Numbered from the stretch's first letter, positions 10,438 through 58,965 are shown. The stretch: 64,000 nt of DNA from Thermoanaerobaculia bacterium (GCA_036488085.1 DASXHZ010000089.1:5578-69577); one strand, 5' to 3'. Numbers and translations: made by a program. The notes: a model not told the origin generated them from the letters alone.

Positions 10438-10987
10438 TGTGGCCGTCTTGCGGCGCGACCCAGACGGTGTAGCGGTCGCCCGTGTTCGCGTCGGTGAAGT
10501 CATAGCGGCGGAGGTTGCCCTCCATGGAGAGCTGCGGCGTCCCCTCTTTCTTCTGCGGATCGGGGAAAACAGTGAGCCGCTCCCACAGTTTCTCGAACTT
10601 CCGCGGGATGTCCTTCACCGCTTTTCCCTTGTGCGTCCAGACGATCCCGGTGGCCTTAGCCTCCGCTCTCCACTCGCCGTCGCTCGTGTCGACGATCAGT
10701 AGCTCGGCGCCAGGCGTCTTCCGGATCATGTCGCCCGCGCCGTCCGTGGACTTGAACTGGAGCATTGCCGCGATGCGGATGCAGTCGACCGCGGCAGCGT
10801 ACGAGCCATCGCCGGCGCAATGCTGCGGCGTCGACTTGAGCGGCCGCTTCACCGCCTCGGGCGTAGGAGCCGGATGACGGATAACGGATAACGGATGACG
10901 ACTCACGGGAGGTTGCGGCTTCACGGGGTGCTCGCGCCCGCACGCAACGACAACCGCAAGAGCGAGAACGACGATCGAACGGCGCAT
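10394..10987 (-). CDS. hypothetical lipoprotein
   Basis: MRRSIVVLALAVVVAC lipobox-like N-terminus; co-oriented 13 nt downstream of the PilZ gene. Confidence 0.5.
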   Translation of the reverse strand: MRRSIVVLALAVVVACGREHPVKPQPPVSRHPLSVIRHPAPTPEAVKRPLKSTPQHCAGDGSYAAAVDCIRIAAMLQFKSTDGAGDMIRKTPGAELLIVDTSDGEWRAEAKATGIVWTHKGKAVKDIPRKFEKLWERLTVFPDPQKKEGTPQLSMEGNLRRYDFTDANTGDRYTVWVAPQDGHITKMQVNSWSIWFA

Positions 10988-16751: not shown

Positions 16752-17049
16752 AACCTCCCTACATCACGCCTTCGGCGGCGTCATCGATGGATCGTGCGGA
16801 GCGCCGGCGCGTTCGTCGTCGTGGCCAGCGTCGTTGCCGGTGCCGTACTCGGAGTGGGCGACTGAGGGTCCTGAGCCGTCTTCTTACGGCGCGAGAAGCT
16901 CCTCAACCGCTTCACTTCCTGAATGTGCGGCACCAGGACCGCGTTGTCCGGATTCCGTATGAGCTGCGTCCCGATTGCGACCGCCTGCGCCGTAATGAAC
17001 GCGAGCTTCTGACGGCGCAACGTCATACAAGCGGAGTGAATATACGGCC

Positions 17050-17535
17050 CCGCGATACGGCGAGGGCGCCCCTCGCAGCGGCAACGGAGCCCCTCGTTGC
17101 GGCCGGGTCGCCACTCAAGGTCGTCAACCCACCCCCTCGACGTGGCGAGAGTGCCCCTCGCAGTGGTGCGCGGCCTCTCGACGCCGGCGGTACGCCCTCT
17201 CCAAGGGGAAAGGCGGCCCCTCCAAGGGGGAGCGCGGTCGCTTCCTGGTGAAGATGTTGCCCCTCGCAGTGACCGCGTTGCCGCTTCCGGTGGCCACGCG
17301 GCCCCTCGCGGTGGACGCTGTCCCGCTCGATGCGATTCCGCGGCCCCTCGTCGTGGACGTCGTACTCACTCGCGGGGGCCACGGTCCCCCTCGGAGCGGC
17401 CGCGGTTTCCCCTCGCGGGGCCACCTACCCTCACGGAGGGTCCGGCGTCTCACTCGCGGGGGCCACGATCCCGTTCGCGGCGGCCGCCGTCCTACGCGCA
17501 GCGGCAACGATCCCGCTCGCAAGAGCCGCCGGCGC
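17050..17535. repeat. degenerate 21-bp tandem repeat array (~23 units, core CCCCTCGCGG)
   Basis: CCTCG-type cores recur at 17071, 17092, 17135, 17156, 17217, 17262, 17304, 17325, 17346, 17389, 17411, 17473... with 21-22 bp spacing. Confidence 0.7.
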
Positions 17536-40063: not shown

Positions 40064-40158
40064 AGTTTCGTTACTCGTTACTCGTTATTCGTTACTCGGG
40101 GAACCGTTATCTGTTATCCGTTATCCGAGTAACGAATAACGAATAACGAACCGCGTTC
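40064..40158. terminator. AT-rich heptamer-built palindrome between pstB and phoU (putative terminator or attenuator)
   Basis: (CGTTAYT)x4 - GGAA - (CYGTTAT)x3 - (ARTAACG)x3; outer blocks form ~26-bp imperfect stem. Confidence 0.55.
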
Positions 40159-48814: not shown

Positions 48815-49135
48815 CTCGGCCCCCGTCATCCTGAAAGGTCGTGAAGAAATTTCCCCATCCGTCATCCTGAGTCGCCGAAGCCGCGAAGCGGCGCAGGACG
48901 GCGAAGGAACTCAAAATTCGCAGCTTGTGGCTCACGCGGCGCATTCTGAGATCCTTCGCTGCGCTACGCGGCGGAGCCGCTCCGCCAAGCTCAGGATGAC
49001 GGAAACGAGATTTCTTCACAGCCTCTGAGCCGCCGAAGCGAAGGACGGCGAAGGATCTCAAAATGCGAGGCCTGAGCCGCGCGCAACGCATCTTGAGTTC
49101 CTTCGCTGCGCTTCGCCAGCTCAGGATGACGGTGG
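48815..49135. repeat. family C inverted-repeat elements (GTCATCCTGAG...CGAAGGA type), two to three copies
   Basis: CGTCATCCTGAGTCGCCGAAGC..GCGAAGGAACTCAAAAT and reverse-complement partners; translate to recurrent ..SFAALR.. in shadow ORFs. Confidence 0.55.
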
Positions 49136-49537
49136 GGCGCTGGCCTTCTTCTTCTTTGCCGGCGCCTTCTTCTTCACCGCCTTGTCGTTCTTTTTCGGGG
49201 CCTTGTCGTTCTTCTTCGCGGCCTTCTTGTTCTTCTTCAGCGTCTTCGCCGATTTCTTCAGCACCTTCTTCGCCGACTTCACCGCCTTCTTCCCCACTTT
49301 GACGCCGATGGGGAGGAGGGCGGAGGCGGCGATCACTTCGCCGACCGAGGAGGAAACGCGCGTCACGAAGGCATCCTTCTGTTCGGTGCTCATCGCGCGC
49401 CAGTGCGCGACGAGCGTTTGGAGCGCGTCGGGCTCGGCGCCCTCGGCAGGCGGCGCGGCGCCATCCGCCAGGTGGTCGAGCGCGCGTATCCCGGTGTCGT
49501 GAATGTACGACGCGAGTTTTTTCGGCAAAGCATCCAT
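49121..49537 (-). CDS. lysine-rich histone-H1/AlgP-like protein
   Basis: 138-aa ORF 16 nt downstream of ppk1; C-terminal KKAVKSAKKVLKKSAKTLKKNKKAAKK repeats; overlaps family C repeat. Confidence 0.4.
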   Translation of the reverse strand: MDALPKKLASYIHDTGIRALDHLADGAAPPAEGAEPDALQTLVAHWRAMSTEQKDAFVTRVSSSVGEVIAASALLPIGVKVGKKAVKSAKKVLKKSAKTLKKNKKAAKKNDKAPKKNDKAVKKKAPAKKKKASAPPSS

Positions 49538-55406: not shown

Positions 55407-55434
55407 GACTAGTGACTAGTGACTAGTGACTAGT
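55407..55434. repeat. (GACTAGT)x4 perfect heptamer tandem, each unit containing the palindrome ACTAGT
   Basis: read directly; lies 22 nt upstream of aquaporin ATG and encodes the last codons and stop of the EAL gene. Confidence 0.8.
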
Positions 55435-56285: not shown

Positions 56286-56345
56286 AGGGAGTAAAGGTTC
56301 TGTGTGCGGGGTCGGCTCTCAGCCGACCCAGGGCCGGCTGAGAGC
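56286..56345. repeat. family B REP doublet (GGTCGGCTCTCAGCCGACC + GGCCGGCTGAGAGCCGGCC flanked by TGTGTG/CACACAC)
   Basis: same hairpin pair at 36455-36512, single hairpins at 32940-32975, 54283-54318, 56495-56545, 58935-58965. Confidence 0.7.
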
Positions 56346-56700
56346 CGGCCCCACACACTACTCCTCCGTGCGCTTGCGCCGCTTCTTCTGCCGCTCGAGC
56401 TTCCGGAGGCGCTGCATCTCCTCGTAAATGGGGATCAACTGCTCGTTCTCGGGTAAGCGCACCAGGTGCTTGGTCACGGCGAAGGCGTGGTCAGCGATCG
56501 GCTCTCAGCCGACCCAGGGCCGGCTGAGAGCCGGCCCCACACACTACTCCTCCGTGCGCTTGCGCCGCTTCTTCTGCCGCTCGAGCTTGCGGAGACGCTG
56601 CATCTCCTCGTAAATGGGGATCAGTATCTCGTTCTCGGGTAAGCGCACGAGATGCTTCGTCACGGCGAAGGCGTGGTCGGCGATCAACCCGAGCTTGTAG
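56305..56700. repeat. ~195-bp direct tandem duplication including gene 3' end plus REP hairpin
   Basis: 56310-56498 vs 56499-56690 near-identical; creates a duplicated C-terminal fragment (..ADHAFAVTKHLVRLPENE(Q/I)LIPIYEEMQRLRKLERQKKRRKRTEE). Confidence 0.7.
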
Positions 56701-57011
56701 CGGCGCATGAGGTTGGCGCTGCTGACGCCGTTGAAGATCTCCCGAAGATCGGCTTCTACCGCCGCCCACCGGGTGGTCAGCATGATGAGATCTGTGACTT
56801 CATCGGACGACAGCCCGATGGCGGCGGAAACCCTGTCCGACGTTCCGATGGCACTCATCGCTGCGGACACCGTCTCAGGCGAGTGCCTGATGCGATCGCG
56901 AAGGTCGCGCCGCTGCTGCGCCGTCATCGGCGTGTAATCATCTTCGATGGTAGAGCGCACGGCGCGCAACTGCTGCTGAACGTCTTCCGGCGTCGATTTC
57001 TGCTTCGGCAT
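56544..57011 (-). CDS. hypothetical protein with possible PhoU-like repeat (LIADHAFAV)
   Basis: 155-aa ORF from MPKQKS..; ORF stays open a further 123 codons upstream through the 21-bp repeat array, so true start uncertain. Confidence 0.4.
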   Translation of the reverse strand: MPKQKSTPEDVQQQLRAVRSTIEDDYTPMTAQQRRDLRDRIRHSPETVSAAMSAIGTSDRVSAAIGLSSDEVTDLIMLTTRWAAVEADLREIFNGVSSANLMRRYKLGLIADHAFAVTKHLVRLPENEILIPIYEEMQRLRKLERQKKRRKRTEE

Positions 57012-57017
57012 CACTTG

Positions 57018-57360
57018 CTCTCCCCAGGCGAGCAATTCTACGCTCAAAGTGAGCAGTTGTCCGCTCCAGGAGGCCAAATGATCGCTCTGCACGAGCATTT
57101 CCACGCTGGCAACGCACAATTGTACTCTCCTTACAAGCAGATCCCCGCTCCTAGCAAACATTTGTGCTCTTCTAGCGAATACTTGCTCGCTTAATACTGC
57201 CAAATGTTCGCTTCGAGAGTACGATTGATCTCTCGCGGCGAGCAATTGCGCGCTCACAGCGAACAAGTGCTGGCTTGATACGAACAATCTCTCGCCACGA
57301 GCGGACAGTTTCTCGCTCCGAGCGGACAGATGCTCGCTCGGGGCGAACAGTTGATACTCG
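57018..57360. repeat. 21-bp x 16 tandem repeat, consensus GARCARWTGNTCGCTCNNAGC, ~50% GC
   Basis: units aligned by eye; conserved CA..T....CGCT core; in-frame with downstream ORF giving SxxLxxR heptads. Confidence 0.8.
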
Positions 57361-57634
57361 CCGCCCGCGCGGAGCGCCATTCAGCCGCACAACCGTCACA
57401 GGCACTTCCCTTGCTCAACCGTTACGCCGGAGGTAACTGAAGTGCTTCTGACTCTCGCAATCATTCTCCTGATCGCGTGGCTTCTCGGGCTCGTGGCGTT
57501 TCACGTAACGGCGTGGTTCATTCACATCCTCATCGTCCTCGCCGTCATCATCTTCATTCTCCACTTCGTCCGCGGGCGTCCCGCGGTCTGACCCGGTTGC
57601 AGGGGTGTGCGCTTTGTGCTACAAAGCGCACACC

Positions 57635-58619: not shown

Positions 58620-58965
58620 TTGTACAGATTGAATCGGAGGGGCGGACGCCCTCGTCCGCCTGCGCGGCGAAGCCGCGCTATCGCGCGGCCGGGCGCACGA
58701 GGGCGTGCGCCCCTCCATGAAGACCCGAGGTACACATGGATCGTCTGGCCGATTGAATCGGAGAGGCGGACGCCCTCGTCCGCCTGCGCGGCAGAGCCGC
58801 GCTATCGCGCGGCCGGGCGCACGGGGGCGTGCGCCCCCCCAGGAAAACCCGAGGTACACATGTTTCGTCTGGCCGATTGAATCGGAGGGGCGGACGCCCT
58901 CGTCCGCCTGCGCGGCGAAGCCGCGCAACCAAGGGCCGGCTAAGAGCCGGCCCCTTACACGAAGG
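58620..58965. repeat. three tandem ~123-bp copies of family A REP unit (RAYT-type hairpins) ending in a family B hairpin
   Basis: GGCCGATTGAATCGGAGGGGCGGACGCCCTCGTCCGCCTGCGCGG..GGCGCACGAGGGCGTGCGCC repeated at ~58640, 58745, 58870. Confidence 0.8.

Follow-up and report, generated by a model that had tools for sequence, protein, structure and literature searches.

The locus described here lies on the minus strand of a 64,000-nucleotide stretch of DNA from a Thermoanaerobaculia bacterium, referred to below as the window. It comprises a gene for a 155-residue protein (56544..57011, minus strand), a tandem array immediately upstream of that gene, made up of 16 units with a length of exactly 21 bp (57024..57359, minus strand), and a non-repetitive spacer (57360..57441) which holds a fortuitous ATG at 57380 and lies between the array and a divergently transcribed DUF5670 gene (57442..57591, plus strand). 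The neighbours of the 155-aa gene in the window are this DUF5670 gene and an EAL gene. The end of the 155-aa gene has been duplicated in tandem, with its last 47 codons and a GC-rich hairpin of ~57 nt occurring as two 186-bp copies, 94% identical, in 56312..56685. The hairpin downstream of the gene has no T-run. The downstream duplicate remnant encodes ENEQLIP, like relatives, and the live copy ENEILIP. The window protein lacks the Pro/Glu-rich tail that is present in relatives.

The protein belongs to an uncharacterised family specific to Thermoanaerobaculia. It is basic, with a pI of 9.6, and many of its nearly invariant residues are arginines. The AlphaFold2 model, derived from an alignment of 80 sequences (pLDDT 89.8, pTM 0.66), has six helices, of which four are short (residues 8-25, 31-40, 45-57 and 59-65) and two form a long hairpin (69-121 and 125-153), followed by a basic tail. 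Nothing significant is found for the protein in Pfam, NCBIfam, PHROGs, PADLOC, a PDB sequence profile search or Foldseek searches of PDB and BFVD. The best Foldseek matches of the model are helix-turn-helix proteins (SmtB, Fis and MarR-type), all non-significant with E values of at least 5 and probabilities <0.06. Weak, sub-threshold matches to DUF5312 in 20 of 40 members were judged uninformative. The family has no relatives on 72,556 plasmids or on IMG/VR viral contigs; its loci lie among housekeeping genes in chromosomal contigs of up to 6.6 Mb. It occurs only in this class, an uncultured group of soil Acidobacteriota, and literature searches found no published description of the gene with its array.

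A position-weight matrix built from the units gives 16 matches on the minus strand of 57024-57359 at exact 21-bp spacing (57024, 57045 ... 57339). Lag-21 identity in 57018-57380 is 0.541 compared with 0.254 +/- 0.024 in shuffled sequence (n=2000; z ~12), and this is the top lag-21 signal among all 363-bp stretches of the window, the second being an array at 17.2 kb. The array of sixteen 21-bp units that an earlier sequence-only reading had described at this place is therefore real. The degeneracy of the units is the reason why Tandem Repeats Finder detects no more than 2.9 copies (57291-57350). A sub-periodicity of 7 or 10.5 bp is not among the top lags of the array. The low GC content noted earlier holds, since the array is in the lowest 0.7% of windows, but the figures given for it (~50% against 68%) do not; they are 55.6% for the array and 65.6% for the window mean. 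The low value results from AATT-centred units and the promoter.

On the minus strand, the consensus of the unit is AGCGAGCAATTGTTCGCTCGG, which consists of an 18-bp quasi-palindrome, AGCGAGCAATTGTTCGCT, and a 3-bp spacer, with the half-sites GCGnnCA and TGnnCGC. The first 18 bases form a near-perfect palindrome in which 8 of 9 pairs match, a property that the earlier reading did not mention. The palindromy of single units is poor, as only 34-50% of their arm positions pair, weakly above shuffles. The information profile along the unit is roughly mirror-symmetric, with two conserved blocks per half-site (GCG..CA / TG..CGC) and half-site centres ~10 bp apart, and this symmetric pattern resembles that of operators of dimeric helix-turn-helix proteins. 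As 21 bp corresponds to two helical turns, all sites lie on one face of the helix. The unit layout continues into a partial 17th unit (GGAGAGCAAGTGATGCCGAAG, 57003..57023, minus strand), which overlaps the ribosome-binding site and start codon of the gene. Isolated matches to the unit matrix elsewhere in the window, searched as a possible regulon, are at chance level. Dyad symmetry of the whole array, or a cruciform, was rejected as there is no preference for a register; phasing of Dam/GATC sites was also rejected, GATC being found in every unit only in the GAGATCGC subtype and not in the window.

The minus-strand frame is open through the whole array, as the earlier reading had stated, and an ORF of 278 aa (56544..57380) starting at the ATG at 57380 spans all units, whose translation has an S-E-x-L-x-x-R heptad pattern. 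On these grounds the array had been proposed to encode a heptad-repeat N-terminal domain, so that the product of the gene would be 278 aa in length. The homologues argue otherwise. There are 73 close homologues of the 155-aa protein, nearly all of 155-167 aa, and all of them begin with M-x-K-Q-K-x-T-P-E-D-V, so that their start matches the ATG at 57011 in the window. The wider family, collected by a profile search of 1.84 billion representatives, consists of 412 clusters, mostly of 155-200 aa, in which the few longer calls are non-repetitive mis-extensions. No heptad-repeat extension occurs among the 73 close homologues and 412 clusters. Of 22 related loci, 21 have stop codons in the array frame, and even in L060, from a strain whose protein is 99% identical and whose array has the same number of units as the window with zero indels, there is a TGA in this frame. 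GC3 is 0.61 in the array frame, 0.82 in the gene and 0.80-0.91 in neighbouring genes, so the remark that third-position GC is atypical was correct, while the horizontal acquisition suggested to explain it is not supported, given the native GC3 of the gene itself. Among the units, codon positions 1 and 2 are no more conserved than position 3, and several other frames are also open over long stretches of the array because the unit contains no stop codons. A conserved ribosome-binding site and -10 element immediately precede the ATG at 57011, and no gene is called inside the arrays in L061-L064 or in the other related loci inspected. Homologue starts, stops in relatives, GC3 and the lack of excess conservation at any codon position together refute the heptad domain, to which hardly any credence can be given. 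The array is non-coding and the 278-aa ORF is a fortuitous extension; homologue starts and GC3 agree on 56544..57011 as the true coding region. Gene callers can thus wrongly extend this gene by 123 codons through a stop-free repeat.

The array contains the predicted sigma-70-type core promoter of the 155-aa gene. A promoter scan finds a -35-like hexamer, CGGACA, inside the penultimate unit (57058..57063, minus strand) and a -10-like hexamer, TAGAAT, inside the last full unit (57035..57040, minus strand), the latter also marked by the alignment of relatives, giving CGGACA-17-TAGAAT at 57063-57035. The ribosome-binding site GGGGAGAG (57018..57025, minus strand) is 6 nt upstream of the ATG. When the last 110 bp before the gene are aligned for 21 loci, G.GTAnnAT is invariant in the last unit and is followed by GGAG(G) and then the start codon. 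At the homologous place L016 has ATGACA-17-TATAAT, with 11 of 12 matches. In the clade with ~50% protein identity the -10 element is kept and no recognisable -35 was found. Deep clades have a conserved TTGACT-17-TAnATT promoter with a long leader behind it, and there the array is located ~95 bp before this promoter. The array precedes or overlaps the core promoter in each of these arrangements, and most of it would therefore be outside the mRNA. A sigma-54 promoter was considered for some loci of the ~50% clade, where TGG-N9-TTGC fits, and rejected, since its GG/GC elements vary in spacing and bases whereas TAnnAT is invariant. The leader of the deep clade (L050 2576-2945; also L035, L039-L043, L047-L058 and L067/L068) is a highly conserved sequence of ~345 nt between array and gene. 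It shows covariation, with compensatory changes in 20 of its 92 predicted pairs, and has no Rfam match; it is a candidate for a new structured 5' leader RNA and is absent from the window.

The association of array and gene can be assessed in 59 related loci taken from GTDB genomes and JGI metagenomes, in which every named genome record is Thermoanaerobaculia. With an array defined as a lag-21 segment of at least 250 bp located no more than 700 bp upstream of the gene, 46 loci are testable and 30 of these have an array upstream of the family gene, so that the absence of the repeat from all relatives, which the sequence-only reading had considered as evidence against its proposal, is not what is found. 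The 178 kb of other sequence examined contain just two segments of this kind, both of them HAMP-like coding regions. The module of array and gene is distributed in soil Thermoanaerobaculia on chromosomal contigs, and array and gene stay together over a range of protein identity from 79% to ~30%, while the neighbouring genes vary across loci. Array size ranges from 13 to 30 units across the family, and in some deep-clade relatives the array is missing or reduced to 2-3 units (L065, L067). The orientation of the units relative to the gene is conserved.

The period is 21 bp throughout, and the unit sequence changes with the protein clade while a palindromic core is kept. The window clade has the unit GAGCGAGCAATTGyTCGCTyG with the palindrome AGCGAGCAATTGyTCGCT, and the ~50%-identity clade has GAGATCGCAATTGCGCGCTCG or GAGAGCGCAATTGCGCGCTCG with the palindromic core GAGATCGCAATTGCGCGCTC. 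The units of L011 and L013 are GGGACTGGCAGTCCGCAGCAT and GACGGGCACGCCGTGCCCGCC, with cores GGGACTGgCAGTCCC and GGGCACGCCGTGCCC respectively; L066 has TCCGGAC-N5-GTCCGGA and L035 has the core ACCCGGGT, whereas the unit of L050 is asymmetric and is present in 8 forward and 7 inverted copies. Paralogs within single MAGs (L012, L013) differ in their unit sequences. Among the proteins of the ~50% clade there is no residue whose identity follows the two unit variants, and the co-divergence of unit and protein is confounded by shared ancestry.

Orthologous arrays can be aligned one unit at a time and vary by whole units, with indels of about one unit (20-22 bp); this is the kind of copy-number variation for which the earlier reading had suggested a comparison of relatives. 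The whole-unit indels, together with the zero indels between window and L060, mean that the phase is preserved. The proximal units are strongly conserved. Of the substitutions that separate window and L060, 31 are located in the 231 bp of units 4-14 (13%) and 10 in the remaining 813 bp (1.2%); the three units at either end of the array and the flanking genes show few or no differences. The central units (window 57078-57280) thus show a more than 10-fold excess of divergence without indels, and substitutions are ~2x denser at low-information positions. Intra-array conversion or relaxed constraint could be the cause. In three samples that share an identical protein the arrays are identical as well, so that hypermutability over short periods was rejected. 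L017 (79% identity) has TGA as the codon of the invariant Trp82 and the most degenerate array of its clade, and L037 has an apparent frameshift; both may be pseudogenised modules or sequencing errors. In six loci (L007, L008, L014, L033, L044 and L057) the metagenome or MAG contig stops at or within the family gene; for L007 and L008 this is at residue 14, beside the expected place of the array, and such arrays may break short-read metagenome assemblies. In the deep-clade loci L050 (3493-3924), L065 (4632-5108) and L066 (4707-5156) the family gene is directly followed by another small gene (143-158 aa), which the window does not have; L050, L055 and L058 have a very divergent paralog in this place (HMM E ~1e-6).

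The window contains another array of this period at 17040..17530 (minus strand), with ~23 units of 21 (+/-1) bp that form a GC-rich quasi-palindrome, GAGGGGcc...ggCCCCcgC. It directly abuts an 81-aa ORF (16781..17026, minus strand), reaching up to its ATG. The ORF, found by tblastn (E=1e-9), hmmsearch (E=1e-23) and ORF listing, is a truncated paralog of the 155-aa protein which retains only the C-terminal third (profile positions 118-180); no ribosome-binding site is evident before it, and it is probably a decayed paralog. The truncated paralog beside this array identifies the two 21-bp arrays of the window as two copies of one kind of module with different units, and the connection which the earlier reading had drawn between them, from their common period, is thereby shown to be right. 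A third 21-bp repeat at 49.1 kb was rejected as a module since it is an unrelated, coding, lysine-rich tail. It belongs to a 138-aa ORF (49121-49537, minus strand) next to polyphosphate kinase, whose histone-H1-like tail is made of lysine-rich repeats (KKAVKSAKKVLKKSAKTLKKNKKAAKK...).

The comparisons establish a non-coding array that is tied to its gene family, keeps its period, changes length by whole units, has units peculiar to each paralog and contains a promoter; that a protein binds it, which protein this is and in which direction it regulates the gene are inferred. The reading preferred here, to which about an even chance is assigned, is that the array is a non-coding double-stranded DNA cis-element that is bound cooperatively as a phased filament, most likely by the product of its own gene, and serves autoregulation together with nucleation or titration. 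Its components differ in strength. The array is very probably a functional non-coding cis-element, and it is probably an array of protein-binding sites in double-stranded DNA; that the product of the adjacent gene binds it is a proposition that falls slightly short of even. According to the proposed mechanism, dimers of a sequence-specific DNA-binding protein would load cooperatively along the array and form a phased, one-faced nucleoprotein filament. The basic, all-helical product of the adjacent gene would be the most likely binder, the promoter-proximal units would control transcription of the gene and hence its autoregulation, and the distal units would provide a high-capacity platform for nucleation or titration. 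The adjacent gene is the only constant companion of the array and paralogs in one genome differ in their units, so the simplest hypothesis is that the protein binds its own array. The different units of the two modules in the window and of the paralogs within MAGs argue for cognate binders rather than one global factor. Of the proposal that the array is a non-coding phased binding array, made in the sequence-only reading as the alternative to coding, the general part, a putative binding array upstream of the gene, is supported by the comparative evidence, while in the strict sense the array is not an iteron, as there are no Rep, plasmid or origin features.

The binder might also be something other than the adjacent product, namely a separate regulator, a nucleoid protein, or RNA polymerase sensing promoter-like units. 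This is rather unlikely. In its favour, no recognisable DNA-binding domain was found in the 155-aa protein by Pfam, NCBIfam, PHROGs and PDB sequence searches, which counts against binding by the gene's own product. Moreover, each unit resembles weak -35 and -10 elements, and 21-bp phasing would suit architectural proteins too. However, the array is tied to one gene family while its neighbours vary, the differing units of same-genome paralogs would require several unlinked specific binders, and the GC-rich unit types exclude a general role in AT-tract curvature.

The array could instead act as RNA, as a leader or non-coding RNA of tandem hairpins that serves as a protein sponge or as an element of stability or translation. 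The predicted minus-strand fold is stable (-173.8 kcal/mol, z=-6.6 vs shuffles), the units are palindromic, and deep-clade relatives have a structured leader RNA before the gene. This explanation is nevertheless considered unlikely. The predicted fold is one long hairpin, the generic pairing expected of any palindromic units, and has no preferred register (anti-diagonal 10.75 vs mean 10.24); only 1 compensatory pair is found among the 31 substitutions between window and L060, and arm covariation within units is weak. The 10-bp palindromes of some clades (CTTCGCGAAG) are too short for hairpins, and the conserved -10 in the last unit, like the position of deep-clade arrays upstream of the promoter, does not fit a transcribed element. 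Rfam 15 has no matches in the array, and only sub-threshold matches of miRNA models to the downstream terminator hairpin.

In incC/RepA, a small gene lies next to tandem phased repeats that extend over its promoter. The same arrangement at this locus, seen also in parC/ParR and the omega sites (PMC2241845, PMC9499535), could indicate a plasmid-type iteron origin or the partition centromere of an integrated mobile element. Such an origin is improbable, for none of the loci inspected has a neighbouring Rep, ParA, ParM or TubZ gene, the plasmid and viral collections searched hold no relatives, and the loci have the chromosomal, housekeeping surroundings described above. Still less probable is a functionless, neutral minisatellite produced by replication slippage, which would account for degenerate units, copy number changing by whole units and the fast divergence of the central units, but not for the retention of the array with the gene over the full range of protein identity, the constant period and palindromic core, the conserved orientation to the gene or the strong conservation of proximal units.

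A protein-bound, autoregulatory array has parallels among known systems. Theta-plasmid iterons (P1 incC/incA with RepA; RK2, R6K) are direct repeats of 17-22 bp, about two helical turns apart, of which one set overlaps the promoter of the binder gene for autoregulation and extra copies titrate the binder. The 16 units at exactly 21 bp directly upstream of a gene are iteron-like in this respect. Unlike iterons, which are asymmetric, the units of the module are palindromic, and the module has no Rep-like winged-helix protein and is not on its own replicon; inspection of the 60-bp flank revealed no evident AT-rich unwinding element or DnaA boxes. ARG boxes are 18-bp palindromes 3 bp apart, hence at 21-bp spacing, and adjacent boxes are bound cooperatively. 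The 18-bp imperfect palindrome and 3-bp spacer of the array have the geometry of paired ARG boxes. However, ARG boxes and MetJ met-boxes number 2-5 compared with the 13-30 units of the arrays, and their sequences and proteins are unrelated.

Plasmid centromeres provide further parallels. In R1 parC, two sets of five 11-bp repeats flank the promoter and are bound by ParR (PMC2241845), and in parC/ParR, omega and TubR/tubC the cooperative, filament-like binding doubles as autoregulation (PMC2241845, PMC9499535, PMC6009700). Families of ParR/parC coexist in Clostridium perfringens with cognate specificity of repeat and binder (PMC9426499). Like R1 parC/ParR, the omega heptads of pSM19035 and TubR/tubC, the module has phased repeats that lie upstream of a gene for a small protein and overlap its promoter, and the direct and inverted units of L050 recall the omega sites. 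Unlike these centromeres, it is chromosomal and without an adjacent motor NTPase, its protein is all-helical with no ribbon-helix-helix or winged-helix match, and its units are longer (21 bp) and more numerous (13-30). The sopC site of the F plasmid, with 12 43-bp repeats that each contain a 16-bp inverted repeat for dimeric SopB (PMC3177203), is similar in having direct repeats of palindromic sites. It differs in its 43-bp period and its location downstream of sopAB, where it does not contain the promoter, and its binder SopB, a helix-turn-helix protein of the ParB family, has ParA as a partner. By analogy the module appears closest in its working to plasmid centromere and operator arrays, as an autoregulatory phased binding array with an unknown protein family. 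It is a member of none of the known systems, since it has no motor NTPase, Rep, plasmid context or recognisable ribbon-helix-helix, ParB or winged-helix fold and has far more units than chromosomal operators.

If the inference of binding holds, the module would be a chromosomal, motor-less counterpart of plasmid centromere and iteron arrays, built around a family without known fold or annotation. The several paralogous array-protein pairs of a genome, with differing palindromes at one two-turn spacing, would then represent a natural set of orthogonal protein-DNA recognition pairs and a tractable case in which to study how specificity co-diverges while filament geometry is kept. A wider and more tentative proposal is that these are self-contained chromosomal 'address' modules, each combining a new all-helical DNA-binding fold with a private array of 13-30 phased sites; orthogonal paralogous pairs in one genome might form motor-less filaments for chromosome organisation, anchoring or ultrasensitive switching.

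Several other repeats occur in the window. In the pstB-phoU intergenic region (40064-40158), tandem heptamers, TCGTTAC (x4) and CCGTTAT (x3) followed by TAACGAA (x3) as their inverse, combine into a long imperfect hairpin, and this is the lowest-GC spot of the window. Perfect or near-perfect heptamer repeats are also found at 10871-10900 (CGGATAA/CGGATGA x4) and at 55407-55434 (GACTAGT x4), the latter separating the EAL gene from the start of a MIP-family channel gene. A 124-bp repeat of 2.4 copies with 93% identity (58627-58926) is located between a DUF4337 gene and the gene for a 585-aa secreted protein.
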